A DNA stretch of 64,000 bases from Patescibacteria group bacterium. Lineage in GTDB: Bacteria > Patescibacteriota > Doudnabacteria > UBA920 > O2-02-FULL-48-8. Below are positions 9,245 to 59,650 of the stretch, piece by piece. A model generated the notes under the pieces. The model was given only the letters and a program-made list of their open reading frames with translations, was not told the origin of the DNA and did no database searches. The position numbers and the translations under genes were made by a program. Position 1 is the first letter of the stretch, and every line of letters starts with the position of its first letter. The stretch is from NCBI GenBank assembly GCA_036278915.1, contig DASUKB010000004.1, positions 73,441 through 137,440 on the forward strand. Direction: 5' to 3'.

Positions 9245-9599
9245 AAAATTAGATTTAAGATTAAAGTTGTAAGATTTAAGTTGCTAACCCAAAATACAAG
9301 AGTTCGAAACTTAAATCTACCAACTTACAACTTCGAGCTAAATAAAAACTGTCTTTCCAAAGACAGTATCTGAGTTGATAAATCAACTAACTACATCGTA
9401 GTCAGCCGATTTATCGGCTCTGCTCCTGCTTAGCAGATTAAGGCATTTGATTCCTTCCCTTTAGAACTCCCCTCGCCCGTTCGCGGGAGAGGGCTGGGGG
9501 TGAGGTTGCCAGCTAAGGTCTTTGGAAATATTTAGTTCTCACGCAGTATATAGGAATTTTGAAAGCAAGTCAAGATCAATCGTAAGCAACGCCTAACCT
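9245..9599 (-). promoter_or_regulatory. structured 5' leader of rplJ (candidate L10-leader-type autoregulatory element)
   Basis: A 355-nt noncoding stretch containing several perfect hairpins: actgtctttccaaagacagt, agttgataaatcaact and agccgatttatcggct. It also contains repeat E1. Its position upstream of rplJ matches where L10(L12)4 autoregulatory leaders occur. Confidence 0.3.
9467..9513 (+). repeat. repeat family 2, copy E1 (TTAGAACTCC..CCCGTTCGCGGGAGAGGGCTGGGGGTGAGG)
   Basis: A CCCTCGCCCG/CGGGAGAGGG stem around a UUCG tetraloop, followed by a G-rich tail. Near-identical copies are at 59601-59650 and, reversed, at 14096-14150. Confidence 0.75.
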
Positions 9600-10049
9600 T
9601 TAATTTAGCTTACTTTTAATGGCTTTTTCAATAAGCCAGGAGCTTGATTGTATCTTTCCGCCAGCGCCTACATTAAATACCATTTTACAACCAATCCGTT
9701 TGCAAACTTCTGATTCAGGAACGTTGTTTGCGTCCCTGTCGCCACCATTAGCAAAAACGTCAGGTCTCAAATAAGCAAGCTCAACCGACACACTCATGTC
9801 CGATACATCTGGCTTGTGCATAGATAAAAACACTTCATCAACATATCGGATTGATTCAATTATTTCCTTGCGTTCATTTTCTGGCATGAAAACAAAATTC
9901 TTTTTCTTCATCAGCCAGTTGTCGTTATTTAAAATTACAATAAGTTTATCGCCGAGTTCCTTCGCTTCTTTAAATAGCCGTACGTGACCAGAATGAACAG
10001 GGTCAAAACCCCCAGAGACTACCACAACAGTTTCCTTTTTTTCTTTCAT
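9600..10049 (-). CDS. cytidylyltransferase-family nucleotidyltransferase (RfaE domain II / TagD-like)
   Basis: VVVVSGGFDPVHSGHVRLF carries the HxGH nucleotidyltransferase signature. The size and layout (149 aa) match heptose-1-phosphate adenylyltransferase or glycerol-3-phosphate cytidylyltransferase-like enzymes. Confidence 0.7.
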   Translation of the reverse strand: MKEKKETVVVVSGGFDPVHSGHVRLFKEAKELGDKLIVILNNDNWLMKKKNFVFMPENERKEIIESIRYVDEVFLSMHKPDVSDMSVSVELAYLRPDVFANGGDRDANNVPESEVCKRIGCKMVFNVGAGGKIQSSSWLIEKAIKSKLN

Positions 10050-10053
10050 AAAT

Positions 10054-11136
10054 TTATTTCAAATATTTTTGTTTATTCGCATTTTGCTCAGCAAGTGTCT
10101 TTGCAAAATAAGCGGTACCGTCTGGCGCGTTCAAAAAATATAAATAGTCGGATTGCGCCGGGTAGATGGCGGCCATAATAGAATCCAACCCAGGATTTGA
10201 AATCGGTCCGGGCGGCAAACCCGTGACTTGGTACGTGTTGTAGGGAGATTTGATTTTTGTGTCTTCGAGCGACACGGAAGGCGTGGATTTGCCAGTGATG
10301 TAATTGACAGTGGCGTCGGATTCCAGCGGCATGCCGATAGCAAGTCGGTTGTAGAAAACCGAAGCGACCAGTTCCCTCTCCTGGTGCATCGCGGCCTGGT
10401 CGTCGGTGGTAATCACAGTTTTGTTTCGGCCCACTTCTTTTTCTATAATTGATGCCAGCACAACCACATCGCCCAGACTGCGGTGCTGCTCTTCCATATC
10501 GCTGCGCATCTGCGCTGTAATCTTGGAGTCAAAGTTGGAAAGCATTTTTTGGACGAGGTCCTGTGCTGTCGTGTCTTTGGAAACAAGGTAAGTGTCTGGA
10601 AACAAAAATCCTTGGTAATTAAAATTTTGAGCTGTTGTCGAATCCGAAAAATTATAACCTGAGGAGTCGAGCGCGGTTTCAAAGTCTTCGGCGGACACAA
10701 CATTTAACTTTTCCAGATCTGAGGCAATCTGCCCGTTGGTCTTGCCTTCCACTACAGTGACCTTGCGCTCGGTGGATACGACCTTGCCGACCGTGAGAAC
10801 GTCGACGATCTGTACAACATTCATATCACGATCTAAAGCATAATTTCCAGCCTGGATCTTATCGGAGGCGTGCCGCAATTTGGTATAAAAAACGAACGAC
10901 CAATATGAGCCGATAACTTTTTCGTCACGGAGTTTATGCGCAATTGCGTATGTGCTTTCTCCCGGGTTGATGACTATATCGACCGGAACCGATACCGAGG
11001 ATGCGGCCTGGTTGATTTTCGTATAAAAATAAGCCCCCAGAGTAAGGAGCACGACTAATCCGAGCGAAATAATGAGGCTGATTATTTTGAACCAGCTGCG
11101 CCTGGGTTGGTCGATGAAAAATTCATGGTTTGACAT
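10054..11136 (-). CDS. mltG: endolytic murein transglycosylase MltG (YceG family)
   Basis: N-terminal TM helix. The C-terminal YceG signature reads ...YNTYQVTGLPPGPISNPGLDSIMAAIYP...YLYF. Confidence 0.8.
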   Translation of the reverse strand: MSNHEFFIDQPRRSWFKIISLIISLGLVVLLTLGAYFYTKINQAASSVSVPVDIVINPGESTYAIAHKLRDEKVIGSYWSFVFYTKLRHASDKIQAGNYALDRDMNVVQIVDVLTVGKVVSTERKVTVVEGKTNGQIASDLEKLNVVSAEDFETALDSSGYNFSDSTTAQNFNYQGFLFPDTYLVSKDTTAQDLVQKMLSNFDSKITAQMRSDMEEQHRSLGDVVVLASIIEKEVGRNKTVITTDDQAAMHQERELVASVFYNRLAIGMPLESDATVNYITGKSTPSVSLEDTKIKSPYNTYQVTGLPPGPISNPGLDSIMAAIYPAQSDYLYFLNAPDGTAYFAKTLAEQNANKQKYLK

Positions 11137-11324
11137 ACTGACATTATGCCAAAATTAAACCCTGCAATCAATGAGCTGCCGAGACTTGCCAAGTTGGCTG
11201 AAATTTGCTATAATATGTATGTAAGTTAAAATTTTCCGAAACAAAATCAAAATTTAGGAAAACAAATCAAATAGAGAGCAATCGGTTCTTTATTTTTCTT
11301 TTGTTTTTACTCGCAAACACAAAA

Positions 11325-11801
11325 ATGTTCACGAAATTAAAATTTGGCATCCTTTTGGGTGCGATACTTCTGAGCACGGGGCTTGCCCGCCCGTTTTCTT
11401 CGTTATCCATGAACCAGATTATGAGCATGGTCAATGCAGATCGGGTAAGTCAAGGTTTGCCGCGGCTTGATCTGGACCCAACTCTAAATCTGGCGGCTCT
11501 GGCCAAGGCTGATGATATGATAACCAACCATTACTTTGCGCATACTTCCCCGGACGGAGTTGCCCCTTGGTACTGGATCAAAAACGTCGGCTATAATTAC
11601 TCCTATGCCGGTGAAAATCTGGCACTCGGCTTCCAGGACGCATCAGATCTTATGAACTCCTGGATGAACAGCCCAGACCACAGAGCTAATATTCTTTCCC
11701 CTAACTACCAAGACATGGGACTGGCCGTTATCCAATCCTCCGATTCAACTTTGGTTGTGCAGATGTTCGGCTCGGTAAACCATCTCTCGTTGAACAAATA
11801 G
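11325..11801 (+). CDS. secreted CAP/SCP/PR-1 domain protein
   Basis: Signal peptide followed by a CAP-domain motif set (NADRVSQGLPRL; HYFAHTSPDG; GENLA; MNSPDHRANIL). ATG chosen at 11325, because the provided ORF begins at a TTG. An extended -10 TGcTATAAT is present at about 11205. Confidence 0.7.
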   Translation: MFTKLKFGILLGAILLSTGLARPFSSLSMNQIMSMVNADRVSQGLPRLDLDPTLNLAALAKADDMITNHYFAHTSPDGVAPWYWIKNVGYNYSYAGENLALGFQDASDLMNSWMNSPDHRANILSPNYQDMGLAVIQSSDSTLVVQMFGSVNHLSLNK

Positions 11802-11915
11802 ATTTTACCTTACGACACACAACTCCAGTCGCTGACCGGAGTTTTTATTTTTGCCAAAATCAGGGTTGACAAAGCCTGCGTTTACTGCTAGACTCGAAGG
11901 CTTCCCGCAACGCAT

Positions 11916-12581
11916 ATGGATAAAGTTTTAACCCTTATTGCTGTGACGTTCATATACTCGTACGAAGAGCTCAAGGCCTTGTTTTTAAACCTGGTCTACA
12001 AATTTTTTAGAAACAAAAAATATTATTATTCACGCTCAGACAAAATTATATCGGACGCGGTCCTTTTGGCGGCAGTGCCGATTGCCATGACCTGGTATTT
12101 ACGAGGAGCGGCTGGGTTAGAAAAAAACTTACTCGTGCTGCTGCTTCAATTGTCCGCCATCTTTGCGGTGCTAAGTGTTTTGCGATTCGTTGTAAAAAAT
12201 TTTCGCATACCAGAACCAGTTATTACTTACGCTCAATCAATTATGACTTTGGGCGCGGCAACAGGTAAACTCGTTGCGCAACCGGCGCGCATGTTGCAGC
12301 TTGACTCGGCTGAACGTTTAAAATTTTTCTCCAAATTCATTTTCGCCATTGTCATGTCAACTCTCGCGGTGCTTTTGCTTGAACGACTTATAAAAATTTA
12401 TGTGCCCGCAAATTTATCGAACGAGTACGCTCTGCTTTTGCTCGTTTTGGCAGCCGCGCTTTTTCTGCAAAGCGCAATCCCCCATCTTGAAAATATTCTG
12501 TTCCATCCGAAAATAAAATTCTCCGGCTACTTACGCATCATCGCCGGCATCTTGCTTGCTGCATACCTTGTGGTGAAATAA
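11916..12581 (+). CDS. hypothetical polytopic membrane protein
   Basis: 221 aa with about six predicted TM helices. A TTGACA-17-TAGACT promoter lies at about 11868-11896. Confidence 0.45.
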   Translation: MDKVLTLIAVTFIYSYEELKALFLNLVYKFFRNKKYYYSRSDKIISDAVLLAAVPIAMTWYLRGAAGLEKNLLVLLLQLSAIFAVLSVLRFVVKNFRIPEPVITYAQSIMTLGAATGKLVAQPARMLQLDSAERLKFFSKFIFAIVMSTLAVLLLERLIKIYVPANLSNEYALLLLVLAAALFLQSAIPHLENILFHPKIKFSGYLRIIAGILLAAYLVVK

Positions 12582-12612
12582 ACCCAGCCCCTCCTGAGGG
12601 GCTGGGTTTTTG
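12582..12612. terminator. bidirectional terminator
   Basis: cccagcccctcctgaggggctggg hairpin followed by TTTTT. Confidence 0.6.
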
Positions 12613-12672
12613 AAATTTATCTTGCGGGAAAACGGTTAAACCAAAAATTTATTTTCCTACAAGGTCAATTGA

Positions 12673-13356
12673 CTACTTGATGCGGATGTCGCGTTCGATC
12701 TTATCGAGCGCGCGCGATGCATGCTCGCGTCCGCCGAGACCGAATGCCAAACCTCCGGCGATTGCCAACATGGCTATGATGCCGGTAAACAATGTCTGGA
12801 CAAATGCAGTGGCCACGTTCAGCTGGGCCAAAGTTGCCAGGATTGTAAAGATCATGATGGCCCACTGGGTGACGGTGCCAAGCAGGTCAGCCGAAGCAAG
12901 CCCCGCGGCCTGCACTGAGTGCTTGACCAGCCGGGACAGAAATCCAGCGACCATAGTGCCGACCAGCATAATTGCGGCAGCAGCGATGACGTTCGGGATA
13001 TAGAGCAAAACCTGGTTTAAGAAATCCGAAACCTGGTTTAAGCCTAGGATGTTTGCCGCGGCCAAAAAGATAGCCACGAGCAAAAACCACTTGACCAGCC
13101 AAGCAATAGCGCCTGAGATGGACATTTTAACGCCGGTTCGGGCAGAAACCTGGTCCAAACCGAGCTTGTCTCCAACTTCGTCCACGTGGACAGCATGCAA
13201 AGCCTGCTTTATAAGCTTGGCAATTGCTACAGCCACAATCCATCCAACCACCAAAACAATGACCGCAACCAGGAAGTTGGGAAGGAAATTGACGAAACGG
13301 GCATAGACATCCTGCAGAGACGCCTGCACTGGCGAAAGATAATTAGTGTTATTCAT
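12673..13356 (-). CDS. membrane protein with conserved TM-helix repeats (mechanosensitive-channel-like family)
   Basis: Three repeated amphipathic/TM helix units of the type found in MscS-like N-terminal regions, for example LVGTMVAGFLSRLVKHSV. Confidence 0.45.
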   Translation of the reverse strand: MNNTNYLSPVQASLQDVYARFVNFLPNFLVAVIVLVVGWIVAVAIAKLIKQALHAVHVDEVGDKLGLDQVSARTGVKMSISGAIAWLVKWFLLVAIFLAAANILGLNQVSDFLNQVLLYIPNVIAAAAIMLVGTMVAGFLSRLVKHSVQAAGLASADLLGTVTQWAIMIFTILATLAQLNVATAFVQTLFTGIIAMLAIAGGLAFGLGGREHASRALDKIERDIRIK

Positions 13357-14034: not shown

Positions 14035-14095
14035 TTTGTTTCAATAAGTTTACCGCACGGCTTCATTATACCCCCAACCCCTGCTTTTGAACATC

Positions 14096-14150
14096 CCGCT
14101 CTTTCCCCTCACCCTCTTTTCCCTCTCCCAAAGGGAGGGGGAAGTTCCAA
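14096..14150 (-). repeat. repeat family 2, copy E2 (reverse orientation)
   Basis: The reverse complement reads GGAACTTCCCCCTCCCTTTGGGAGAGGGAAAAGAGGGTGAGGGG, which matches E1 and E3. Confidence 0.65.
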
Positions 14151-14168
14151 TCTGTAGACGAACCAAAC

Positions 14169-14199
14169 AAAAACCGCCCCGTATTGTTGGGGCGGATTT
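14169..14199 (-). terminator. terminator downstream of hup
   Basis: aaaaaccgccccgtattgttggggcggattt hairpin. Confidence 0.6.
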
Positions 14200-14210
14200 G
14201 GTTTCTGAAA

Positions 14211-14495
14211 TTACAGGATTGAGTCTTTGGCAGCTTTGGCAACGCGGAACTTTACAACAGTCTTGGCAGGGATTTTGATCTGCTCGCCAGTGGCTGGGTT
14301 GCGTCCCATGCGGGCTTCGCGGTGCTTTTTGAGGAGCTTGCCGAGTCCTGGGATCGTGAATTCTCCGCTCTTTTTTGCCTCATCGTAGGCAAGATTGACG
14401 AGGGCGTCGATCAGTTCGGCGATTTCTTTGCGTGATTTACCGGTCTTTTCGGCAACCGCGTTAAGCACCTCGGATTTGGTCATTCCTTTGGCCAT
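14211..14495 (-). CDS. hup: DNA-binding protein HU
   Basis: MAKGMTKSEVLNAVAEKTGKSRKEIAELIDALVNLAYDEAKKSGEFTIPGLGKL...RNPATGEQIKIPA matches the HU/IHF fold signature. Confidence 0.9.
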   Translation of the reverse strand: MAKGMTKSEVLNAVAEKTGKSRKEIAELIDALVNLAYDEAKKSGEFTIPGLGKLLKKHREARMGRNPATGEQIKIPAKTVVKFRVAKAAKDSIL

Positions 14496-20189: not shown

Positions 20190-20284
20190 AACCTTCCTCC
20201 ATTCAGAAGTAGGACTATAATAACAAAAAACAGCCTCAATGACGAGACTGTCTTCCTGGCAGCGAGCTTGGGATGAGGTGGGAG

Positions 20285-20758: not shown

Positions 20759-20832
20759 AACGCAAGTTTAACAAAAAACAGCCTCATTGACGAGGCTATC
20801 TTTTGGCAGCAAACTTGGGAGAAGGCTGAAAA

Positions 20833-21453: not shown

Positions 21454-21607
21454 ATCCTAAGCATAACAAAAAACACTAGCAATAGCTAGACAATCTCGGG
21501 CTGGTCGATTGGACAGTAGAAAGACAGTGCTGCCTTCCCTCACTTCTGCCCGTTCGATTCCTACGATGACTATCAAAAAAGCGCCACGCAGAAGCGTGTC
21601 GCTTTTT

Positions 21608-21681
21608 TGGCAGGGGGTGTAGGAATCGAACCTACGCCAACGGTTTTGGAGACCGCAGTACTACCACTATACTAACCCCCC
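21608..21681 (-). tRNA. tRNA-Trp (anticodon CCA)
   Basis: Minus-strand GGGGGGTTAGTATAGTGGTAGTACTGCGGTCTCCAAAACCGTTGGCGTAGGTTCGATTCCTACACCCCCTGCCA. Cloverleaf with anticodon loop CUCCAAA. Confidence 0.85.
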
Positions 21682-21691
21682 TCATAGGGAA

Positions 21692-21950: not shown

Positions 21951-22023
21951 TGGGTGTAGGAATCGCCCCGCCTCTCGCGAGGTGGGGTTGGAGACCGCAG
22001 TACTACCACTATACTAACCCCCC
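21951..22023 (-). pseudogene. tRNA-Trp pseudo-copy (nt 1-37 intact, middle replaced by a 22-nt hairpin, 3' end degenerate)
   Basis: 22023-21989 is identical to tRNA-Trp positions 1-37, ending exactly after the anticodon loop A37. Then comes CCCCACCTCGCGAGAGGCGGGG, then CGATTCCTACACCC (T-arm 3' part). There is no acceptor 3' strand or CCA. Confidence 0.6.
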
Positions 22024-22081
22024 TCGTCATCCTGAACGCAGTGAAGGACCTTTGGATTCTTCGCTTCGCTCAGAATGACAC
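22024..22081. repeat. palindromic hairpin repeat, family 1, copy B
   Basis: TCGTCATCCTGAACGCAGTGAAGGACCTTTGGATTCTTCGCTTCGCTCAGAATGACAC, abutting the 5' end of the tRNA-Trp pseudo-copy. Confidence 0.85.
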
Positions 22082-22088
22082 AATATTA

Positions 22089-22244
22089 CTATTTAGTTTC
22101 TTTGTGTTCGGTGTGCTTTTTGCACCATTTGCAAAACTTGCTCGTAACCAAACGGTTTGGAGTCAGTTTTTTGTTCTTGCGGGAATGGTAGTTTATGTGA
22201 TGGCAAACCGTACATTCCATGCTAATCAAATTGTCCTGCGACAT
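22089..22244 (-). CDS. rpmG: 50S ribosomal protein L33
   Basis: ...MECTVCHHINYHSRKNKKLTPNRLVTSKFCKWCKKHTEHKETK shows the L33 zinc-ribbon pattern and the C-terminal KHT.HKE.K. Start at MSQDNLIS. Confidence 0.8.
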   Translation of the reverse strand: MSQDNLISMECTVCHHINYHSRKNKKLTPNRLVTSKFCKWCKKHTEHKETK

Positions 22245-29171: not shown

Positions 29172-29384
29172 TTGCTCCTCCTGCCAGTTGACTCAAAATA
29201 ATAGCGCAAAGTCCGACCAAAGTCAACGGCCTGCCTGCCCGTACGTACCGCGTACGTACCAAATAAAACAACTCACCCGAGCACCCTCATGTTACCCACC
29301 CTCTCTTTGCCAAAGAGAGGGTGGAACCACAACCAAGCTGCCGGCCTTGATTTAATCTTAAAACGGTGTTATACTTTGCAAGTT

Positions 29385-30819: not shown

Positions 30820-31719
30820 ATGACTATTCACGACCTTATAAAAGTTGCGGAAAAGAAACTCAAAAACAGCACCTCGCCCGTACTGGACGGCGAAGTGCTG
30901 TTGTCTTTTGTAATCAGGAAACCCAGAGAATACCTGCTGGCAAACCCAAGGCGAAACGTAAACCCCAAATTTGAAAAAATCTATTTCCGACTCATCAACA
31001 AGCGCCTCCTGGGCTGGCCCGTGGCATACCTCACCAAACATAAAGAATTTTTCGGACTCAATTTCTACGTCGACAAAAACGTACTCATCCCCCGTCCGGA
31101 AACGGAAGGGCTGGTAGAGAGAGTAATTGATTACGTAAATAATTACGTAATCAAAAAGCAGCTCAATATCCTTGATGTCGGTACTGGCTCCGGATGCATT
31201 ATAATCTCACTCGCTAAAAATCTAGGCCGCAAAAATCACTACCTTGCTTCGGATATTTCGCCGCGCGCCATAAATATTGCCAAAAAAAATGCCAAACTGC
31301 ACAAAACCAAGGTAACATTTGGGGACGGCAATTTGCTTGAACCCTGGCTTGTCCGCAGAAACCCCCGCTCCATTGCGACCACGGCAGTAAGCCGAGTTAG
31401 CGGAGGCGGAGGAGACATGAAATTCGACATTATAGTCGCAAACCTCCCATATCTTAAGCGCGAATCAGACCCATCTACCAAATTTGAACCAAAGGGCGCG
31501 CTCATCGCCGCCAAAAAAGGTACGATGCTTTATGAAGAACTGTTTAAACAAACCTCATCCCTTACCTCTCTCCCCTCATCTCTGTTTATCGAAATCGGCC
31601 GGGACCAAGGACCGATTATAAAAAAAGTGGCCAAGAAATATTTACCAAATTACAAACCTCAAATTTACAAAGACCTTTTCGGCCGGACGCGCTACGCCAG
31701 CATGCAAAAAGTTAATTAA
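30820..31719 (+). CDS. prmC: release factor glutamine N5-methyltransferase PrmC (HemK)
   Basis: SAM motif LDVGTGSGCI and catalytic motif IIVANLPY (an NPPY variant). It lies directly downstream of prfA. Confidence 0.8.
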   Translation: MTIHDLIKVAEKKLKNSTSPVLDGEVLLSFVIRKPREYLLANPRRNVNPKFEKIYFRLINKRLLGWPVAYLTKHKEFFGLNFYVDKNVLIPRPETEGLVERVIDYVNNYVIKKQLNILDVGTGSGCIIISLAKNLGRKNHYLASDISPRAINIAKKNAKLHKTKVTFGDGNLLEPWLVRRNPRSIATTAVSRVSGGGGDMKFDIIVANLPYLKRESDPSTKFEPKGALIAAKKGTMLYEELFKQTSSLTSLPSSLFIEIGRDQGPIIKKVAKKYLPNYKPQIYKDLFGRTRYASMQKVN

Positions 31720-38697: not shown

Positions 38698-40539
38698 ATG
38701 GATTCAAAATCTGAAAAACTCCATAATCTCCGTCACTCTCTGGCACATATTTTAGCCTCCGCCGTAACAGAGATGTTCCCCAAAGCCCAACTGGGCGTAG
38801 GTCCTGTTATAGAAAACGGGTTCTTTTATGATTTCTTGCTGCCACGCCCGCTTACTCCGGAAGATCTCAAGAAATTGGAAAAACGCATGCGCGAATTGGT
38901 CAAACAAAAACTCCCGTTTGAACGAAACGAAATGCCGATTGCCGATGCCAAAAAATATTTCAAAGAAGCTAACCAGCCGTTCAAAGTACAGCTCATCGAG
39001 GACATAGAAAAATTTGGAACCACAAAAGCCGATGAGATCCTAAGCCAGGGGGGAGAGCGAAGGGAAGACAAGGGGAACACTTCCAAGCGCTCGGACGCAG
39101 TTCCCTCTCGCAATTCCCTTCCCCCTACGGTTTCCCTCTATAAGACTGGTCGCTTTACCGACCTCTGCCGCGGCGGGCACGTAGCAACCACATCAGAAAT
39201 CGATCCCCAATCTTTTAAACTAGACAAGATCTCCGGGGCTTACTGGCGCGGTGATCAAAAAAATCCCCAGATGCAAAGAATCTACGGCCTGGCCTTTGAG
39301 AGTAAAGAGGAACTGGAAAATTACGTCCGACTCCAAGAAGAAATAATCAAACGCGACCACCGCGTGCTTGGGCCCAAACTCGGATTATTTCTGTTCAACG
39401 ACATGGCGCCCGGCATCCCCTTTTACCAGCCCAAAGGCATGATCGTACGCAATGAATTGGAAAAATTCGTGCGCGAAGTTTCGTACGGACCAGGATATTC
39501 AGAAGTGAGACTGCCGCAGATGTTTGATTCGGAACTTTGGAAAATTTCCGGCCACTGGGAACACTACAAAGACGATATGTTTGTCTTTGACGTGGAGAAC
39601 CGAAAATTTGCGCTCAAGCCCATGAACTGCCCGGGACACATGCTGCTCTATAAGCAGGGTTTGTATTCATATAAAGATTTGCCGCTGCGGTTTGCGGAAA
39701 TGACAACCCTGCATCGCAATGAACTCACCGGCGCGCTCTCCGGCCTTACCCGCACCCGCGCGTTTGCGCAGGACGACTGCCATATATTTCTCACTCAAGA
39801 TCAAATTGAAAAGGAAGTTGTAGAGCTCCTTGCCCGCACCAAACGGATTTTCGACACCTTTGGCATGGAAATTGAGGACGTGGTAGTCTCCACGCGGCCG
39901 GACCAGGCTTTGGGCACAAAGAAGGAATGGGACGAAGCAGAAAAATCTTTGGAGGCAGCACTTAAGAAAGCCAAATGGAAATATGCTATCAATCCCAAAG
40001 ATGGCGCATTCTACGGACCCAAAATCGATATGCGCATCCGCGACGTGCTGGGACGCAAGTGGCAGCTGGCCACAATCCAGCTGGATTTCCAAATGCCGCA
40101 GAGGTTTGGCCTGGAGTATGTGGACGCGCACGGCCAGAAACAGACGCCGATAGTCATCCACCGCGCCCTGCTGGGATCTTTTGAAAGATTTTTGGGAATT
40201 ATGATTGAACACTTTGCGGGAGCACTTCCCGTCTGGCTGGCACCTGTGCAGGTCAAAATCCTGCCGATTACGGATAAGCAAAATAAATATGCCCTCGCTC
40301 TCGCAGTTGATCTTGCTGCTGAGCAAATCCGAGTGGAAGCCGACGACCGATCGGAATCCGTGGGCAAAAAAATCCGGGAAGCGGAAATGGAAAAAGTCCC
40401 CTATATGCTTATAGTCGGCGAAAAAGAAGCCAAAGCCAAAACAATTTCCGTGCGCAGCCGCAACAAGGATCTGGGCTCAATGAAATTGCAAAAGTTTATA
40501 GATAAAATCCAGGATCAAATCTCCAAACGTTCGTTATAA
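38698..40539 (+). CDS. thrS: threonyl-tRNA synthetase (lacks N-terminal TGS domain)
   Basis: SAD/editing motifs (HSLAHIL; DLCRGGHV), class II motifs, and the anticodon-binding domain. Confidence 0.9.
   Translation: MDSKSEKLHNLRHSLAHILASAVTEMFPKAQLGVGPVIENGFFYDFLLPRPLTPEDLKKLEKRMRELVKQKLPFERNEMPIADAKKYFKEANQPFKVQLIEDIEKFGTTKADEILSQGGERREDKGNTSKRSDAVPSRNSLPPTVSLYKTGRFTDLCRGGHVATTSEIDPQSFKLDKISGAYWRGDQKNPQMQRIYGLAFESKEELENYVRLQEEIIKRDHRVLGPKLGLFLFNDMAPGIPFYQPKGMIVRNELEKFVREVSYGPGYSEVRLPQMFDSELWKISGHWEHYKDDMFVFDVENRKFALKPMNCPGHMLLYKQGLYSYKDLPLRFAEMTTLHRNELTGALSGLTRTRAFAQDDCHIFLTQDQIEKEVVELLARTKRIFDTFGMEIEDVVVSTRPDQALGTKKEWDEAEKSLEAALKKAKWKYAINPKDGAFYGPKIDMRIRDVLGRKWQLATIQLDFQMPQRFGLEYVDAHGQKQTPIVIHRALLGSFERFLGIMIEHFAGALPVWLAPVQVKILPITDKQNKYALALAVDLAAEQIRVEADDRSESVGKKIREAEMEKVPYMLIVGEKEAKAKTISVRSRNKDLGSMKLQKFIDKIQDQISKRSL
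39046..39128 (+). repeat. purine-rich/pyrimidine-rich palindromic segment embedded in-frame in thrS
   Basis: GGGGGGAGAGCGAAGGGAAGACAAGGGGAAC ...21 nt... GTTCCCTCTCGCAATTCCCTTCCCCCT. This encodes the low-complexity loop GGERREDKGNTSKRSDAVPSRNSLPP just before the conserved LY..G.F.DLCRG block. Confidence 0.5.
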
Positions 40540-48690: not shown

Positions 48691-49632
48691 GTGACAAAGA
48701 AATTTATGCATAGATTAATAATAATTTTGGGTCCCACCGCCTCCGGCAAATCATCTCTTGCAATTAAACTTGCAAAAAAGTTTAAGGGCGAGATTATTTC
48801 CGCAGACAGCAGGCAAGTCTATCGCGGCATGGATATCGGCACTGGCAAGATTTCCAAAAAAGAACAACGCCTGGTACCGCACTATTTGATGGACGTTGCA
48901 AATCCCAAAAAACAGTTCACCGTCTCTGACTTCAAAAAGCTAGGAGCCCAGGCAATCGAAAGAATCAAGAAAAAACATAAATTGCCGTTTATAGTTGGCG
49001 GCACGGCCTTTTATATCTATTCGCTCATAGACGACTGGCAGATTCCGGAAGTTGCGCCAAATAAAAAATTACGTAATACATTACGTAATAAATCCACCAG
49101 GGAACTTTTTGCCATGCTCCAAAAACTGGATCCGAGGCGCGCGGCCAACATAGACTCACGCAATCCCGCGCGCCTCAGCCGCGCGATTGAGATAGTCAAA
49201 ACGACAGGTAGGCCAGTGCCCTCCCTGTCATCCCCGACTCCGATCGGGGATCTTAATAAAGATTCCCGCTTCCGCGGGAATGACACAAAGGTTTTATTAC
49301 TTGGTATCCGCAAAGACCAAAACGAGCTTTACAAGCTTATCGATAAGCGCTTGGAAGAAAGATTGAGGTCAGGAATGGTTGCAGAGGTAAAAAAACTTCA
49401 CAAATCTGGTTTGTCTTGGAATAAACTAGAAAGCTTTGGTCTAGAGTACCGCTTTGTTTCTCTTTATTTACAAAATAAATTATCTTATAGAAAAATGGTA
49501 GACCAGCTCAAATCCGCCATTCATAAATTTTCCAAACGCCAGAATACATGGTTTAAACGCGACACTCGGATCCATTGGATCAAAAACGAAAAAGAAGCTC
49601 GGAAACTGATTAAGCCTTATCTGTCATCCTGA
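48691..49632 (+). CDS. miaA: tRNA dimethylallyltransferase
   Basis: P-loop IIILGPTASGKSSLAI...ISADSRQVYRGMDIGTGK is the MiaA signature. The stop codon TGA lies inside repeat copy C. Confidence 0.85.
   Translation: MTKKFMHRLIIILGPTASGKSSLAIKLAKKFKGEIISADSRQVYRGMDIGTGKISKKEQRLVPHYLMDVANPKKQFTVSDFKKLGAQAIERIKKKHKLPFIVGGTAFYIYSLIDDWQIPEVAPNKKLRNTLRNKSTRELFAMLQKLDPRRAANIDSRNPARLSRAIEIVKTTGRPVPSLSSPTPIGDLNKDSRFRGNDTKVLLLGIRKDQNELYKLIDKRLEERLRSGMVAEVKKLHKSGLSWNKLESFGLEYRFVSLYLQNKLSYRKMVDQLKSAIHKFSKRQNTWFKRDTRIHWIKNEKEARKLIKPYLSS
49225..49286 (+). repeat. palindromic hairpin repeat, family 1, copy D, in-frame inside miaA
   Basis: CTGTCATCCCCGACTCCGATCGGGGATCTTAATAAAGATTCCCGCTTCCGCGGGAATGACAC shares its termini (TGTCATCC...GAATGACA) and central GGATCTTAATAAAGATTC with copies A-C. 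It encodes SSPTPIGDLNKDSRFRGND, an approximately 20-aa loop not present in, for example, E. coli MiaA. Confidence 0.7.
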
Positions 49633-49680
49633 ACGTAGTGAAGGATCTCATAAGATTCTTCGCTGCGCTCAGAATGACAA
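49621..49680. repeat. palindromic hairpin repeat, family 1, copy C
   Basis: CTGTCATCCTGAACGTAGTGAAGGATCTCATAAGATTCTTCGCTGCGCTCAGAATGACAA lies between the convergent miaA and gatB genes. It overlaps the last codons and stop of miaA. Confidence 0.85.
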
Positions 49681-49756
49681 TGGTACGTACGCCGTACGTA
49701 CCAAGCTCAGAGCATGCTCTGAGCAAAGTAAGAGCAAAACCGCCTCTGAGGCGGTT

Positions 49757-54029: not shown

Positions 54030-56564
54030 ATGAATCATTTTTCTTTCATTTTAGAACGTTTATCCTCACGAGCCAAATCGGCGCTGATTGCTTCGCAAAA
54101 ACTTGCGGAGGAATTGCACCACGACCACATTGGCTCCGAGCACCTTCTGTACGGCATCGTCCAGGAGATTTCGTCGTTTGCCGCGGAAATCTTGCTCAAG
54201 AATAAGATTTCGCCGGAAATGGTGCGAGCCGAAATTGTACGCCTCAATCCCAACGGCACCACGGATAAATGGGAACCGAAACTTTCTAACAACCTCCGCG
54301 AAATTATCGAAAAGAGTGCTATCATTGCCAGCAAATACCAATACCAATTTATCGGAACCGAACATTTCCTTTATGGCATCACCGATATGGATTACAATTC
54401 TGCAAAGATGATCCTAGACAGCCTCAAAGTCCCAACCTCCGAATTGAAGAAGAACTTGCTCTCAATCTTTGAGAACGTCTCGCGCTTCCCCGACCTTTTG
54501 AATTCCGATGATCAGGCCATGGCCGACGAAGGCCAAGCAATCCCTGCGCCAAACCGCAATGCCAAAACTCCGGCGCTGGACTACTTCACTTCCGATCTCT
54601 CCAAAAAAGCATTGAAAGGCAAAATTGATCCAGTCATCGGCCGCAAAGCCGAAATCGAACGGCTGATCTCCATACTCAATCGCCGCACCAAAAATAACCC
54701 AGTGCTCATAGGCGAACCGGGCGTGGGCAAAACTGCCATCGTCGAGGGTCTGGCTTTGGCCATCATCAAACACGAAGTCCCCGACTCTCTGCTCGACAAA
54801 AAAATCATTACGCTCGATATGGCCCTAGTCGTGGCCGGATCCATGTTCCGCGGCGAATTTGAACAGCGGCTCAAACAGGTCATAGACGAAGTCCGCGAAA
54901 ACCCGAATATTATCTTGTTCATAGATGAGCTGCACACGATAGTCGGAGCTGGCGCCACCACCGGCTCCCTAGACGCGGCCAACATCCTCAAACCAGCGCT
55001 GGCCCGCGGCGAAATTCGCGTCATAGGTGCCACCACGCTCTCCGAGTACAAAAAGCACATTGAACACGATGCCGCTCTGGAACGCCGCTTCCAGCCAATT
55101 CTCGTGGAGGAGCCCAGCATCGAAGAATCCATCCAAATCCTCTCCGGCGTGCGTCCCAATTACGAAAAGCATCACAACTTGACTATAACCGACGACGCCA
55201 TCAAGGCCGCCGTGGAACTTTCGAGCCGCTACATTACCGATCGTTTCCTGCCGGATAAAGCTTTGGACCTCATAGATGAAACCGCAGCCTACTCCAAAAC
55301 AATCAATACCAAAACGCGCAACATCCGCGTAGTCAAAAAAATTGAGATGGAACTCAAAAGGCTTGAAGAAGAAAAAACCAAAGCCGTGATGCTGCAGGAC
55401 TTTACCACTGCCTTGCACTTGAAATCCCAGGAAGACAAGCTCAAAAAGCAGAAGACCGAGTACCAAAAGTCATTCGTCAAAAAACCGACAAGCTCCGAAA
55501 TCAATTCTGAGGATATTGCGCGCACGGTTTCCAATATCACCAAAATTCCGCTCAACAAACTCGTTAAAACCGAAGCCCGCAAGCTTGTGAATTTGGAAAA
55601 AATCCTACAGAGCCGCATAGTCGGCCAGGACGAAGCCATCAAAACCATTGCCTCCGCCGTCCGCCGCAGCCGAGCCGGTATTACCTCTCCCAAACGGCCT
55701 ATTGCATCATTTATGTTCTTGGGCCCCACTGGCGTAGGCAAAACCGAAACTGCCAAAGCTTTAGCTTCAGAAGTGTTTGAAGACTCATCCGCGCTCATCC
55801 GCGTCGACATGTCGGAATTTATGGAACGGCACAATGTCGCTCGGCTCATAGGCGCGCCAGCGGGATATGTCGGCTACGAAGAAGGCGGCCGGCTCACCGA
55901 AGAAGTCCGCAAAAAACCTTACGGCGTTATCCTCTTTGATGAAATCGAAAAAGCCCACCCCGACGTGTTCAACGTCCTGCTCCAGATTTTGGAAGAAGGT
56001 GAACTCACCGATGCTTCAGGCAAGCACGTCAACTTCCGTAACACTGTCATTATAATGACCTCCAACATCGGCGTGTTTGATTTCAACCGACAGGCCAATG
56101 CCTACGGCTTTTCCCAGGACAGAAGTGCCGACCTGCTCAACGACGCCCGAAGGCAGGCTGAATCCGAATACGAACGAGTCAAAGAAAAAATCCTGGATTC
56201 ACTGAAAACTACTATGCGGCCGGAACTGCTCAACCGCATTGACAAAATCTTGGTCTTCCATCCATTGTCCGTAGACGAAATCCGGAAAATTGTCGCCCTG
56301 GAACTTGCGTACCTTACGGATCGCGTGCGCAAACAGCAAAACATTGACGTCGTTGTGGATCGTGATGTCATCAAATACATTGCCGCCAAATCCTACGACA
56401 GCTCGCAGGGCGCCCGCCTTATTCGCCGCAAAATTCAGGAACTGGTGGAAGATCAACTAGCAGAAAAAATCATCAACGGAGAGGTGGCAGAAAAATCCAT
56501 GGTCCGCGTAAGCCTGGAAGGCGACACTATTCAAATTAAGCAGGTGGAGAAAGCGCTCGTCTAA
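54030..56564 (+). CDS. clpC: AAA+ chaperone ClpC/ClpB family (two NBDs, Clp_N repeats, short M-domain)
   Basis: Clp N-domain repeats, NBD1 Walker A (GEPGVGKTAIVEGLA), NBD2 Walker A (GPTGVGKTETAKALA), and sensor motifs. Length 844 aa. Confidence 0.85.
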   Translation: MNHFSFILERLSSRAKSALIASQKLAEELHHDHIGSEHLLYGIVQEISSFAAEILLKNKISPEMVRAEIVRLNPNGTTDKWEPKLSNNLREIIEKSAIIASKYQYQFIGTEHFLYGITDMDYNSAKMILDSLKVPTSELKKNLLSIFENVSRFPDLLNSDDQAMADEGQAIPAPNRNAKTPALDYFTSDLSKKALKGKIDPVIGRKAEIERLISILNRRTKNNPVLIGEPGVGKTAIVEGLALAIIKHEVPDSLLDKKIITLDMALVVAGSMFRGEFEQRLKQVIDEVRENPNIILFIDELHTIVGAGATTGSLDAANILKPALARGEIRVIGATTLSEYKKHIEHDAALERRFQPILVEEPSIEESIQILSGVRPNYEKHHNLTITDDAIKAAVELSSRYITDRFLPDKALDLIDETAAYSKTINTKTRNIRVVKKIEMELKRLEEEKTKAVMLQDFTTALHLKSQEDKLKKQKTEYQKSFVKKPTSSEINSEDIARTVSNITKIPLNKLVKTEARKLVNLEKILQSRIVGQDEAIKTIASAVRRSRAGITSPKRPIASFMFLGPTGVGKTETAKALASEVFEDSSALIRVDMSEFMERHNVARLIGAPAGYVGYEEGGRLTEEVRKKPYGVILFDEIEKAHPDVFNVLLQILEEGELTDASGKHVNFRNTVIIMTSNIGVFDFNRQANAYGFSQDRSADLLNDARRQAESEYERVKEKILDSLKTTMRPELLNRIDKILVFHPLSVDEIRKIVALELAYLTDRVRKQQNIDVVVDRDVIKYIAAKSYDSSQGARLIRRKIQELVEDQLAEKIINGEVAEKSMVRVSLEGDTIQIKQVEKALV

Positions 56565-56568
56565 ACAA

Positions 56569-57276
56569 ATGGCGTGGCTTACCAACATAAAAACACTAGG
56601 TCTGTCTGCACTAGACCTAGTGTTTCCCATATCTTGCGTCGTGTGCGGTCGCGAAGGCGCGCACATTTGTGAGTCTTGTCTAATCCGCTTGCCGCGTATT
56701 CCTCAGCAGCTCTGCGTCGTGTGTAAAAAAAGCGCGGCGTTCGGCAAGACGCATCCGGACTGCCACACCTGCCACACCGTGGATGGTTTAATTTCCGCCA
56801 TATCCTACACTGACACAAACGCAAAAAAATTGATTGGCGTGTTCAAATATGAATTTATTCACGATTTGGCAGAGCCTTTGGCAAAACTTATAACGGAGAC
56901 GGTTGCCAATTTGCAATTAGGAAATTATTTTTCCAACTTTGCAATTATACCCGTGCCACTTCACCGGCGCCGATACAACTGGCGCGGTTTCAACCAATCT
57001 GAACTCTTGGCGTATGCTTTGGGCGTTGCCCTCAACATACCAGTGGATAAAAACCTAGTCAGTCGGTCCAAAAAGACCAAGCCGCAAACAACACTTAATA
57101 AAGAAGACCGAATCGCAAACATCTCCGCAGCGTTTACCTTAAACGCTGCGGTGCCTGGCAAATACTTGCTGGTGGATGACGTGGTTACAACGGGCGCCAC
57201 GCTCAATGAAATTGCCAAACTTCTGAAAAAAAATGGCGCCCAGGAGGTCTGGGCCGCCACAATCGCTCATGGGTAA
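56569..57276 (+). CDS. comFC: competence protein ComFC (phosphoribosyltransferase-like)
   Basis: N-terminal double Cys zinc ribbon (CVVCGR...CESC...CVVCKK...HPDCHTCH) and a C-terminal PRTase motif LLVDDVVTTGATL. Confidence 0.8.
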   Translation: MAWLTNIKTLGLSALDLVFPISCVVCGREGAHICESCLIRLPRIPQQLCVVCKKSAAFGKTHPDCHTCHTVDGLISAISYTDTNAKKLIGVFKYEFIHDLAEPLAKLITETVANLQLGNYFSNFAIIPVPLHRRRYNWRGFNQSELLAYALGVALNIPVDKNLVSRSKKTKPQTTLNKEDRIANISAAFTLNAAVPGKYLLVDDVVTTGATLNEIAKLLKKNGAQEVWAATIAHG

Positions 57277-57408
57277 ATCAAATTGTTTTAAAAACACTTC
57301 TCAGAAGCGTTTTAAATACACAGAGTCCTGTAAGCGGTTCCGTGCGCTAGAAACACCTGTCCCGCGGTTAGTTCTTTTAATTGGACAAGCCGCTGTCTAG
57401 CGTTCTGT

Positions 57409-57500
57409 TGGCGGAGGGTACAGGATTCGAACCTGTGCGGCGCTTTTTAGACGCCCGTGGATTAGCAATCCACTGCCTTAAGCCGCTCGGCCAACCCTCC
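57409..57500 (-). tRNA. tRNA-Ser (anticodon GCU)
   Basis: GGAGGGTTGGCCGAGCGGCTTAAGGCAGTGGATTGCTAATCCAC...long variable arm...ACAGGTTCGAATCCTGTACCCTCCGCCA. Confidence 0.85.
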
Positions 57501-57689
57501 ACCAACAAAACACTATTTATGATTCTAAAAGCTTACCTACATTAAACCGCCCAACGAATCTTCCTGACCACAAAACATAGTTAATTCTAACCAATTTCAA
57601 GAGAATTAGTCAATTTAAATTCCAAATGATATCATTTGGGTAACTTTCCTTGACTTTGTAACAAAAATTAGCCGTAATCGTCTGTATTT

Positions 57690-58232
57690 ATGACTGATGA
57701 AGAGTTAAAATCTATTCTGGAAGCTTGCCAAAAAGGCGACAAAAGCGCATTTGGCCGCATCTACGACTCGTACTCGGTACGGCTGTATCGTTTCATCTAT
57801 ATGCGCGTCGGCCACAAGGAAGTAGCCGAAGACATACTTGCCGAAAGCTTCATTAAGGCCTGGACTAAAATCTCGCAGGTCAACTCTTCCAAAGCCTTTT
57901 CCGCCTGGATTTTCCAGATTGCGAAAAACAACATTATTGACTACTACCGCGTACGCAAATCCACCATTGCCATTGAGGAAGTGGAGCAGGTCCTGGAGGA
58001 CGCGGCAGACCCTATTGATCAGACGGAACTTGATCTGGACCAAAGGCGCATCCTTAAAGCATTGGAGTTTCTGCCGCACGATCACCAACAGGTCATCCGC
58101 TACAAATTTTTTGAAGATCTGACCAATCCCGAAATCGCGCTGATTATGAATAAAACCGAAGGCGCAATCCGCGTGATTCAGCACCGTGCAATCCAAAAAC
58201 TCCAAGAAATCCTTCGTCAAAAACGAATATAA
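57690..58232 (+). CDS. ECF-type RNA polymerase sigma factor
   Basis: Sigma-70 region 2 (FGRIYDSYSVRLYRFIYMRV...AEDILAESFIKAW) and region 4 (DLTNPEIALIMNKTEGAIRVIQHRAIQKL). Confidence 0.8.
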   Translation: MTDEELKSILEACQKGDKSAFGRIYDSYSVRLYRFIYMRVGHKEVAEDILAESFIKAWTKISQVNSSKAFSAWIFQIAKNNIIDYYRVRKSTIAIEEVEQVLEDAADPIDQTELDLDQRRILKALEFLPHDHQQVIRYKFFEDLTNPEIALIMNKTEGAIRVIQHRAIQKLQEILRQKRI

Positions 58233-58268
58233 ATATAATCCAATCTATTAACTATCACCTACTATCTT

Positions 58269-59438
58269 ATGATTATGGACCCAGAAAAAATTATAGACGA
58301 AATTTCAAACCGGCTTTCACGCGGCCGCGATATTTCGTTTTGGCAAAATGATCCCAAGCTTGCGCCCATAGTCAGTATTTTGTCCAAACTTTCCGGCATG
58401 CCCAAAACCAAAATCCCGCAAGCTGAATTTGCCCGCGTTAGATCTCAAATAGCCACACGGATTAATTCCCCTTCCGAATCCAAGCTACGCAGAGGATTTT
58501 GGTCCAGGTTCCCTGCGTACGCCAAGTTTACCACAGCGATTGTGGGTAGCGTGCTCATAGTGATAAGCCTTGGCATTGGTACGGCCGTGGCAGCCATGCA
58601 GAGTGTGCCGGGCCAAACAATTTATCCGCTCAAAAAAATAGTGGAAAATGTCCAGCTCAAACTCACCCGAGATCCGGCTGCGCGCGCCAATTTACAAATC
58701 AAGTTTGCCAATAACCGCCTCGATGAGCTATCCACCGTGCTGGCACAAAATCAAGCCGGAGTCATACCCGACGACCGCACTCAAGCAATCGTTTCGCAGA
58801 CTATCTCCGACTTGCAAAAATCCACTGCCGCTGCACTGAATTCCTCAAACGCCGCGCCGTCTGCCTCAAGCGGCCAGGTCACCGCGCTCAACAAACTTGT
58901 AGATCTGTCCAATAAACAAACCGAAGTTCTGACTCCTCTGCTTTCGGCCGCAAGCATAGCCGACGACGGCCAGGTTAAAATTGTTGTACAGCAGGCTCTG
59001 CAGACTTCTCAAATCTCCAAAGAGGAAGCCATCAAAAATATGGAAAACGCCGGCCTGAAGGTCGATGATAATTCAGTAACTATAGACGAAGCACCAGCCA
59101 ATCAAACCAATGCCAACGGTACCATTACCGCACTCACCGACAACTCCGTCAGCATCGGCACCGCGACATTTTTGCTGACAGATGACACAAAATATGTTAA
59201 TATAAAGCGAACGGATTTAAAGCAAGGATTGGCTATTTCAATCACCGGCGAAGTCCAGGCAGACCAAAAAACTTACGCGCTTACAATTACAGCCGTATCC
59301 GCAGACACAAGCTCTGATTCAAATAACGAGGCCAAAGACTCTTCCGGAAGCGATACAGACAAATCAACTTCAAACGACACCAACAAAGACCAGCCCAAAG
59401 ACACACAAAGCACGGACAGCCACACAGACCAACAGTAA
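58269..59438 (+). CDS. candidate anti-sigma factor / membrane protein with extracytoplasmic domain
   Basis: Immediately downstream of the ECF sigma gene. It has a cytoplasmic N-segment, one TM helix (FTTAIVGSVLIVISLGIGTAV), and an about 280-aa extracellular domain ending in an acidic S/T/D-rich tail. Confidence 0.45.
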   Translation: MIMDPEKIIDEISNRLSRGRDISFWQNDPKLAPIVSILSKLSGMPKTKIPQAEFARVRSQIATRINSPSESKLRRGFWSRFPAYAKFTTAIVGSVLIVISLGIGTAVAAMQSVPGQTIYPLKKIVENVQLKLTRDPAARANLQIKFANNRLDELSTVLAQNQAGVIPDDRTQAIVSQTISDLQKSTAAALNSSNAAPSASSGQVTALNKLVDLSNKQTEVLTPLLSAASIADDGQVKIVVQQALQTSQISKEEAIKNMENAGLKVDDNSVTIDEAPANQTNANGTITALTDNSVSIGTATFLLTDDTKYVNIKRTDLKQGLAISITGEVQADQKTYALTITAVSADTSSDSNNEAKDSSGSDTDKSTSNDTNKDQPKDTQSTDSHTDQQ

Positions 59439-59600
59439 GCTTACAAAATTTGTTAATTAGATCTGCTCCAAAACCGGAGCGCTAATTAAAGCCTAAATTG
59501 ATAATCATTTCCGTAATACCCGGAAATGGAGGCTAAACAATCATATGCAGAAAAGACCGCAAAGCCAAACAGGTTGCGGCCTTTTCTTTTGGTTCATCTA

Positions 59601-59650
59601 CAAATTAGAACTCCTCTCTCCCGTTTGGGGAGAGGGACTGGGGGTGAGGG
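59601..59650 (+). repeat. repeat family 2, copy E3
   Basis: TTAGAACTCCTCTCTCCCGTTTGGGGAGAGGGACTGGGGGTGAGGGTGG is nearly identical to E1 (9467-9513). It sits between a terminator (59555-59592) and tRNA-Ser. Confidence 0.75.

Follow-up and report, generated by a model that had tools for sequence, protein, structure and literature searches.

Three short intergenic repeats in a Patescibacteria contig as probable diverged copies of the BoxC/PIT/TMECO element

What is the short hairpin repeat that stands three times between genes in a 64-kb stretch of a Patescibacteria metagenome-assembled genome (MAG; assembly GCA_036278915.1, contig DASUKB010000004.1, positions 73,441 to 137,440), and does it serve its neighbors in any way? 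The copies, here called E1, E2 and E3, lie upstream of rplJ, between an HU/IHF-like gene and a DoxX-like gene, and upstream of a tRNA-Ser gene; the whole stretch is referred to below as the window. A preliminary description had noted a hairpin CCCTC.CCC / GGGAGAGGG followed by a G-rich tail, and had offered a mobile miniature element, a protein-binding site, a small RNA or a G-rich structure as explanations. Its account of the hairpin and tail was correct, and the three intergenic positions, with E2 reversed, were recovered within a few bases by sequence reading, a motif scan and a family profile. The idea of a G-rich structure went in the right direction, but it missed both that the motif is a known one and that the tail can be read as the third strand of a triplex. 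E1-E3 are very probably diverged copies of the interspersed repeat named BoxC, PIT or TMECO, and their G-rich tail would provide the third strand in a predicted intrastrand DNA triplex of the purine-motif class.

Identity of the repeat

The BoxC motif has been known since the 1990s and was characterized between 2000 and 2016; Hoyne et al. reportedly described it in 2000 as the PIT (potential intrastrand triplex) element of E. coli and other bacteria. The element, once BoxC and later PIT, was then named TMECO, with the pattern 5'-CCCTCNCCC N3-6 GGGNGAGGG N3 GGGNGAGGG-3' in which one mismatched pair is allowed; a broader definition, ITxF, takes loops of 1-6 nt and stems of 6-15 nt with one mismatch (Holder et al., 2015, PMC4666352). 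E. coli K-12 carries 23 TMECO copies, always intergenic and without strand bias, and five pairs are inverted (PMC4666352). In vitro, TMECO oligonucleotides form a class II purine-motif intrastrand triplex, as judged by circular dichroism (CD), 18 imino signals in nuclear magnetic resonance (NMR) and melting temperatures of 70-82 C; the isolated G-rich strand folds as a stable triplex, and a duplex is found when the complement is present (PMC4666352). TMECO has been linked to raised local sequence variability between strains, its presence or absence and copy number vary among relatives, and its strict form was counted by these authors only in 262 proteobacterial genomes (PMC4666352).

In the hrpB-mrcB spacer of E. 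coli K-12 (164535-164640) this element is present twice, as a forward "CCG" copy and an inverted "TTA" copy. When the hrpB-mrcB copy is aligned with E1-E3 and with a copy from Candidatus Doudnabacteria, the three 9-mers match column for column, and it is because of this alignment with the E. coli copy that we read the tail in the window as the predicted third strand of the known motif. A BLAST search with one enterobacterial-looking viral-contig match found it in 5365 of 5426 complete E. coli genomes, with a median of 11 matches per genome and no annotation at any of them.

All three copies in the window share one layout on one strand, namely a tag, the C-rich 9-mer CCCTCNCCC, a loop, GGGAGAGGG, a gap and GGGTGAGGG. 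Their parts are as follows.

9461-9508 (+): E1, whole copy, TTAGAACTCC flank plus three-part motif; sequence reading, repeat family D15, nhmmer profile (E 3e-15)
9461-9470 (+): E1, tag TTAGAACTCC; sequence reading
9470-9478 (+): E1, C-rich stem CCCTCGCCC, the G variant, with one G.A mismatch; sequence reading and motif scan
9479-9484 (+): E1, first loop GTTCGC, 6 nt; sequence reading
9485-9493 (+): E1, first G-rich stem GGGAGAGGG, the purine strand of the duplex; motif scan
9494-9497 (+): E1, second loop CTGG, 4 nt; sequence reading
9498-9506 (+): E1, second G-rich stem (putative third strand) GGGTGAGGT, 8/9 match; motif scan
about 14105-14170 (-): E2, whole copy including the 5' extension common to E3; alignment, motif scan, nhmmer (E 1.4e-14)
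14166-14149 (-): E2, 5' extension TTGGTTCGTCTACAGATT, shared with E3
14141-14133 (-): E2, C-rich stem CCCCCTCCC with one C.A mismatch; motif scan
14129-14121 (-): E2, first G-rich stem GGGAGAGGG after a 3-nt loop TTT; motif scan
14114-14106 (-): E2, putative third strand GGGTGAGGG after a 6-nt loop AAAAGA; motif scan
about 59586-59652 (+): E3, whole copy including the 5' extension common to E2; alignment, motif scan, nhmmer (E 7.5e-17)
59589-59606 (+): E3, 5' extension TTGGTTCATCTACAAATT, shared with E2
59605-59612 (+): E3, tag TTAGAACT; sequence reading
59614-59622 (+): E3, C-rich stem CTCTCTCCC with one T.G wobble; motif scan
59628-59636 (+): E3, first G-rich stem GGGAGAGGG after a 5-nt loop GTTTG; motif scan
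59642-59650 (+): E3, putative third strand GGGTGAGGG after a 5-nt gap ACTGG; motif scan

Set against the published pattern, the C-rich 9-nt stem is exact in E1 and one position off in each of E2 and E3, the first loop measures 6, 3 and 5 nt in E1, E2 and E3 (3-6 nt in the pattern), and the first G-rich stem GGGNGAGGG is present in all three as an exact GGGAGAGGG. The third strand, again GGGNGAGGG and mirror-symmetric to the first G-rich stem, is exact in E2 and E3 and matches at 8 of 9 positions in E1. By the pairing rules, canonical triads are predicted at 7/9 positions in E1 and at 8/9 in both E2 and E3. All three copies are intergenic, in keeping with an element that follows no rule of strand or gene class. 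The second loop departs from the strict 3 nt, with gaps of 4, 6 and 5 nt in E1, E2 and E3; all three copies fall within the broader ITxF definition (PMC4666352).

The family is real and far beyond chance. A three-part scan that allowed at most one mismatch per 9-mer and loops of 3-8 and 1-7 nt found three sites in the window, against a mean of 0.001 in 1000 dinucleotide-preserving shuffles, and the nhmmer family profile returned only E1-E3 (E 1e-14 to 1e-17; next match E 2.6). The window holds exactly these three copies, each between called open reading frames (ORFs) or tRNAs. A fixed-spacing pattern search of the window had recovered E1 alone and was superseded by the variable-loop scan. Three further candidates were rejected as extra copies, since the sequence at 31553-31574, 39051-39111 and 60021-60030 shows no more than an isolated G-rich word within coding sequence.

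The copies had been described as nearly identical over about 45 nt. This holds for E1 and E3, whose pairwise local alignment covers 49 nt with 6 differences, but not for E2, which is clearly more diverged. E2 and E3 align over 76 nt, starting within the T-tract of the upstream terminator, and the word TTGGTTCRTCTACARATT occurs in the window only at 14166-14149 and 59589-59606. The tag before the C-rich stem is TTAGAACTCC in E1 and E3, and TTGGAACTTCC in E2. Because the TTAGAACTCC flank is shared, and E2 and E3 share an additional 5' extension, the copied unit appears to exceed the structure; the copies would then have arisen by copying of a unit longer than the structured part.

Distribution of the motif

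To place these copies in a wider context, viral contigs were scanned with the pattern GGGAGAGGG-N1-7-GGGTGAGG, and genome contigs with the GAACT-tagged hairpin GAACTYCNCNCNCCC-N3-7-GGGAGAGGG, which leaves the third strand unspecified. The viral matches were listed only in part and are a lower bound; the genome-contig scan gave at least 123 copies, and the proportions below are those among the matches listed. CCCTC(T/G)CCC stands a few bases before nearly all viral-contig matches listed, and the hosts differ widely in base composition. The GAACT hairpins listed span Chloroflexota, Planctomycetota, Proteobacteria, Cyanobacteria, Verrucomicrobiota, Nitrospirota, Acidobacteriota, Armatimonadota, Spirochaetota and Candidatus Doudnabacteria.

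GGGNGAGGG follows within 8 nt in 91 of the 123 GAACT hairpins listed. The G-rich tail belongs to the conserved unit, since these copies carry it although the scan did not require it. Like E3, 78 of the 91 have 5 nt between their 9-mers, a spacing that results from 10-nt stems GGGAGAGGGG-YYG-GGGGTGAGGG with a 3-nt loop. At the variable position of the third strand, these 91 copies have T (60), A (30) or C (1). T and A are the two bases that a purine-motif third strand can set against an A:T pair; the pattern could equally stem from the shared ancestry of two sublineages. In full, the third strand is GGGTGAGGG in 60 copies and GGGAGAGGG in 30, this all-purine form being found mainly in Pseudomonas, Cupriavidus and other Proteobacteria, and the central base of the C-rich stem is T in 80 and G in 36 of the 123. 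The variants of the third strand and the C-rich stem suggest clade-specific sublineages of one family.

E1 and E3 read as slightly decayed members of the GAACT subtype with 10-nt stems, E3 by a G-to-A change and E1 by a 1-nt deletion. The Candidatus Doudnabacteria copy (L172) has the GAACTCCCCTC of E1 and the ending GGGTGAGGTTGC, and it likewise follows a terminator T-tract. The GAACT tag is not general, as it is absent from all 92 copies of an unbiased viral sample.

Some genomes hold the motif in compound arrangements. In an Oscillochloris MAG (L124 88-164), motif units are arranged head to tail with a 48-nt period, and in a Chloroflexota MAG (L148 7535-7870) a repeated composite consists of an inverted "TTA" and a forward "CCG" copy, the same inverted pairing as in the E. 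coli hrpB-mrcB spacer. A set of IMG/VR contigs, related to one another and encoding an HK97-type head module, carries the motif beside the major capsid gene, where it either follows that gene or separates it from the protease gene. Either orientation is found (L043 2852-2870, L051 5362-5381, L054 1553-1572, L072 1574-1593, L103 2774-2793), and inverted pairs also occur in capsid modules (L101 2915-2992, L117 1261-1331). A BLAST search of phage GenBank sequences with a 45-nt consensus gave no match, a negative that carries no weight given the low-complexity filter.

The L10 protein of the window matches HEX5430234.1 at 100% identity. The nearest relatives of the host have L10 proteins 80-86% identical to that of the window, as compared to about 57-67% in Candidatus Doudnabacteria. 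About 60 kb of their sequence (contigs L240-L244), which includes the hup-MscS-CAP-YceG-rplJ-rplL neighborhood, contains no copy and no isolated GGGAGAGGG or GGGTGAGGG word, the rplJ and hup regions included. E1-E3 are not conserved at orthologous sites. Conservation in related genomes had been proposed as a test of the motif, and its outcome is divided: the copies are missing at the orthologous sites of the nearest relatives, while the family is conserved across many phyla. The contrast in presence fits the strain-to-strain variability of TMECO. A tblastx comparison of the window with the sampled motif loci from genomes found no related genome.

Absence from orthologous sites could also be expected of a mobile element, which the preliminary description had considered. 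In this case, a REP/REPIN-like (repetitive extragenic palindrome) or MITE-like (miniature inverted-repeat transposable element) unit, made of the imperfect hairpin and its 5' tag (GAACT), would be moved in trans, for example by an HUH/Y1 transposase acting on single-stranded DNA. Trans-mobilization would explain both the spread within a genome and the cross-phylum distribution. It would also be consistent with the sequence shared outside the structured core (TTAGAACTCC in E1/E3 and the 18-26 nt extension in E2/E3), with the GAACT subfamily, which spans many phyla (Candidatus Doudnabacteria among them) and recurs within one MAG on several contigs, and with the central stem mismatch CCCTCGCCC, which recurs in 36 of the 123 copies listed. 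The inverted pairs and tandem arrays of other genomes, the empty orthologous sites of the nearest relatives, and the viral copies that adjoin capsid genes in both orientations point the same way. However, the ends of E1-E3 show, on reading the sequence, no terminal inverted repeats and no target-site duplications, and no transposase-like gene recurs within 3 kb of 239 sampled copies, whose neighboring genes cluster only as phage head-module genes and ABC ATPases. The tag is missing from the viral sample, and a scan of metagenome contigs for the E2/E3 extension gave a single chance match without the motif. Holder et al. (2015) found no link of TMECO to mobile elements in E. coli and none to phages (PMC4666352), the latter in contrast to the copies in phage modules found here. 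We therefore consider mobilization of this kind unlikely.

In its most far-reaching form, BoxC-type motifs would be pan-bacterial, REP-like, non-autonomous mobile DNA, in which a hairpin with a recurrent central mismatch and a subtype-specific 5' tag is recognized in single-stranded form by a widely distributed enzyme. We regard this as improbable. If true, it would explain the identical 9-mers from E. coli to Chloroflexota, Planctomycetota, cyanobacteria and phage head modules, and would also cover a CPR (candidate phyla radiation) genome of roughly 1 Mb at 1 copy per 21 kb.

Genomic setting of the copies

E1 lies between a small nucleotidyltransferase gene (9600-10049, -) and rplJ (8756-9244, -), and its G-rich strand is antisense to both. 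E2 has the terminator of the HU/IHF-like gene (14211-14495, -) on one side and, on the other, a TATAAT box that precedes the DoxX-like gene; E3 is flanked in the same way by a terminator-like hairpin with T-tract and a TAGAAT box that precedes tRNA-Ser(TGA). The orientation of the three copies relative to neighboring genes is mixed. The signals around them are the following.

9573-9545 (-): promoter-like site TTGACT-17-TATACT upstream of rplJ; consensus match only
14174-14195 (-): intrinsic terminator of the HU/IHF-like gene, directly upstream of E2; terminator scan
59555-59590 (+): terminator-like hairpin GACCGCAA...TTGCGGCC plus T-tract, directly upstream of E3; sequence reading
59707-59796: tRNA-Ser(TGA), downstream of E3; tRNA call

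If the promoter-like site at 9573-9545 is used, the rplJ leader transcript probably includes E1 as its C-rich strand. The rplJ upstream region, of about 350 nt (window 9245-9573, -), also has a 40-nt imperfect inverted repeat (9249-9288 / 9302-9341) and a terminator-like hairpin with T-tract at 9367-9348 (-), and resembles an L10-leader-type attenuator, with no Rfam match. The hairpin at 59555-59590 was missed by the terminator scan because its loop is 11 nt long; this terminator and the extension of E3 do not recur at 4507-4551. The same scan does not call E1-E3, and no T-tract follows their hairpin on either strand. Since no T-tract follows, and real terminators stand upstream of E2 and E3, the copies are not intrinsic terminators.

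This setting bears on the possibility that the repeat acts as RNA, be it a small RNA, a 3' hairpin that stabilizes transcripts, or a leader or attenuator structure. The hairpin has a stable fold, in E3 the C-rich strand outperforms shuffled sequences (z = -2.7), E1 would lie in the rplJ leader downstream of the promoter-like site, and each of E2 and E3 comes after a gene and is in sense orientation to it. E2 and E3 also weakly resemble the Rfam family Whalefall-1 (RF01762) over its full length, at 11.9 and 11.8 bits respectively, E1 giving no match; the alignments lie on the element's own strand (E2 14105-14143, -; E3 59614-59651, +). Against an RNA role, these scores of about 12 bits stand far from the gathering threshold of 37. 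At gathering thresholds only tRNAs match Rfam in the window, and permissive E-values add sub-threshold noise and the weak Whalefall-1 resemblance. The RNA of the G-rich strand folds no better than shuffles (z -0.26, +0.16 and -0.96), E1 is oriented opposite to transcription, and E2 and E3 follow intrinsic terminators, so that low read-through is expected. The hairpin lacks a U-tract and is not a terminator, and in phage contigs the motif stands beside the capsid gene in both orientations. Furthermore, purine-motif triplexes are said, in a statement cited in PMC4666352, not to form in RNA. An RNA-level element is therefore very unlikely, and the small-RNA suggestion finds no support, given the missing Rfam match, the shuffle-like folding of the G-rich strand and the mixed orientation.

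Predicted fold and possible role

How would a BoxC/PIT/TMECO copy behave in its place? When the G-rich strand becomes single-stranded in replication, repair or transcription, the first two segments would pair as a Watson-Crick hairpin. The third segment would then fold back antiparallel along the purine strand, forming G.G:C, T.A:T and A.A:T triads of a class II purine-motif intrastrand triplex. Such folding has been demonstrated in vitro for E. coli oligonucleotides only, and is predicted for E1-E3. A G-quadruplex (G4) would be a competing fold of the G-rich strand.

This competing fold is at the center of a different proposal. The E. coli sequences GGGAGAGGGTTAGGGTGAGGG and GGGAGAGGGCCGGGGTGAGGG were described as HPG1/HPG2, a proposed G-quadruplex-hairpin-duplex switch (Kaplan et al., 2016, PMC5100583), and a switch of this type could control the promoters adjacent to the copies. 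E2 and E3 are two of only three canonical G3+N1-7 x4 motifs in the window and stand just upstream of the promoter-like -10 boxes TATAAT (DoxX-like gene) and TAGAAT (tRNA-Ser), and CD supports hairpin and G4 forms of the E. coli sequences in vitro (PMC5100583). As to the G-quadruplex propensity raised in the preliminary description, E2 and E3 contain four tracts of at least three G with loops of 1-7 nt, and E1 has three G3 tracts only. Because E1 lacks the canonical motif, G4 potential is not conserved over the three copies, unlike the hairpin and third strand. The "loop" base of the third segment is T or A in 90 of the 91 copies listed, which a G4 loop would not require, and the 18 imino signals of the E. 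coli oligonucleotide indicate a triplex and not a G4 (PMC4666352). As far as the citation in PMC4666352 conveys, Hoyne and Maher (2002) found PIT elements to be without promoter or terminator activity and without replication block in vivo. A G4 switch at these promoters therefore seems quite improbable.

Most doubtful of all is a site in duplex DNA to which a conserved protein would bind, for example a nucleoid-associated protein or one involved in repair. The exact 9-mers are kept across very distant phyla, beyond structural need, and E2 adjoins the HU/IHF-like gene. On the other hand, no known transcription-factor motif matches the element in E. coli (PMC5100583), its copy numbers vary widely among close relatives (PMC4666352), the relatives studied here lack a copy at the orthologous sites, and no protein stands out as a candidate to bind the duplex.

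On balance, we think it fairly likely that E1-E3 are non-coding BoxC/PIT/TMECO repeats that act at the level of DNA by giving local structure and instability, with no dedicated regulatory role. Neither rplJ nor the DoxX-like gene nor tRNA-Ser would be served by the copies in any dedicated way, and the copies may be passengers in tolerated gaps, E2 and E3 between a terminator and the next promoter and E1 inside a long leader. Their main effect would be to make these sites structurally awkward and prone to change. Within this reading, the part that makes them structural or selfish repeats with no regulatory role we hold only tentatively, at slightly short of an even chance.

Several observations weigh against an assignment of E1-E3 to structural BoxC/PIT/TMECO repeats. 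In vivo dimethyl sulfate (DMS) footprinting in E. coli detected no stable triplex (PMC4666352). None of the three copies fits strict TMECO, each having 1-2 imperfect triads and a second loop that is not 3 nt. From E. coli to CPR bacteria and phages the 9-mers are nearly identical, which exceeds structural need and hints at a sequence-specific partner. E2 and E3 each stand directly behind a terminator and ahead of a promoter-like -10 box, which may point to a role in insulating transcription units. Finally, the contrast of three copies to none is statistically not strong and suggestive only, as it rests on about 60 kb of the relatives' sequence.

Other repeats in the window

A palindrome at about 29296-29325, near-perfect with 14-bp arms CCACCCTCTCTTTG / CAAAGAGAGGGTGG, has no T-tract after it on either strand. 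It had been thought related to E1-E3, but neither the motif scan nor nhmmer detects it at 29296-29324 and it has no third G-rich segment, and for these reasons it is not a member of the family.

A separate, hairpin-forming repeat family reads GTCATCCTGA(A/G)C...GAAGGA followed by ATTCTTCGCT(T/G)CGCTCAGAATGACA, with three to four intergenic copies (D5, D7, D9, D12) at 8693-8765, 22026-22099 and 49623-49682 (and 49267-49288). It is probably the "first" repeat family to which the preliminary description had referred. One of its copies abuts an exact 38-nt duplication (21646-21683 / 21988-22025; family D17), in which the 5' half of the tRNA-Trp gene (21608-21681, -) is repeated 342 nt upstream; the duplication could be a remnant of insertion or integration. 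Lastly, TAACAAAAAACAGCCTCAATGACGAGACTGTCTT is found three times (family D4; 20221-20254, 20769-20802 and 21464-21497), 71-91% identical and 550-700 nt apart, and its copies resemble terminator hairpins related to one another, each behind one of several consecutive small genes.

Significance and comparison with known systems

For annotation, BoxC/TMECO-type repeat is the proper label for E1-E3; they should be called neither small RNAs nor ORFs, and no regulation of rplJ, tRNA-Ser or the DoxX-like gene should be read into them. The finding is an ordinary one for the window and its wider point is modest: a reduced Patescibacteria genome, too, contains the 9-mers characterized in E. coli, and locally at high density, within a family present in many phyla and in viral contigs. 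This sharpens a question dating from the 1990s, namely why exactly these 9-mers, rather than any triplex-forming mirror repeat, are found, and what copies them.

Among known repeats, REP, BIME (bacterial interspersed mosaic element) and REPIN sequences are similar in being short imperfect palindromes between genes, often after terminators and at times in inverted pairs, with variable copy number and clade-specific flanking tags. They share no sequence similarity with E1-E3, and the third G-rich segment is not a REP feature. Unlike in REP/RAYT (REP-associated tyrosine transposase) systems, no associated RAYT or Y1 transposase was found near the sampled copies. Whalefall-1 has a consensus UCUCUCC/GGAGAGA hairpin followed by AGGGUGAGGA downstream, but E2 and E3 lack the model's internal region of 24 nt; the Whalefall-1 consensus may itself be a relative of the triplex-motif class.

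Under the name HPG1/HPG2, the same E. coli element is treated as a G4 motif that reads GGGAGAGGG-TTA/CCG-GGGTGAGGG and is flanked on its 5' side by C-rich sequence; E2 and E3 resemble it in having four G3 tracts. E1 differs in lacking the fourth tract, the exact 21-mer is present in none of the three copies, and the regulatory switch has only been proposed.

The closest match is BoxC/PIT/TMECO itself, with CCCTC(T/G)CCC, GGGAGAGGG and GGGTGAGGG in the same order, a first loop of 3-6 nt, an intergenic location, no orientation rule and a presence that differs among related genomes. The CCCTCGCCC stem of E1 is the "mm" variant of TMECO, the commonest type in K-12. The copies in the window differ from TMECO in a gap of 4-6 nt rather than 3 between the G-rich 9-mers, in the GAACT-flanked subtype, normally with 10-nt stems, to which E1 and E3 appear to belong, and in their host, a Patescibacteria (CPR) MAG. 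They are also denser, with 3 copies in 64 kb as compared to 23 in the 4.6 Mb of E. coli K-12. The motif itself was already known; what is new here is its host, its local density and its slightly decayed form.

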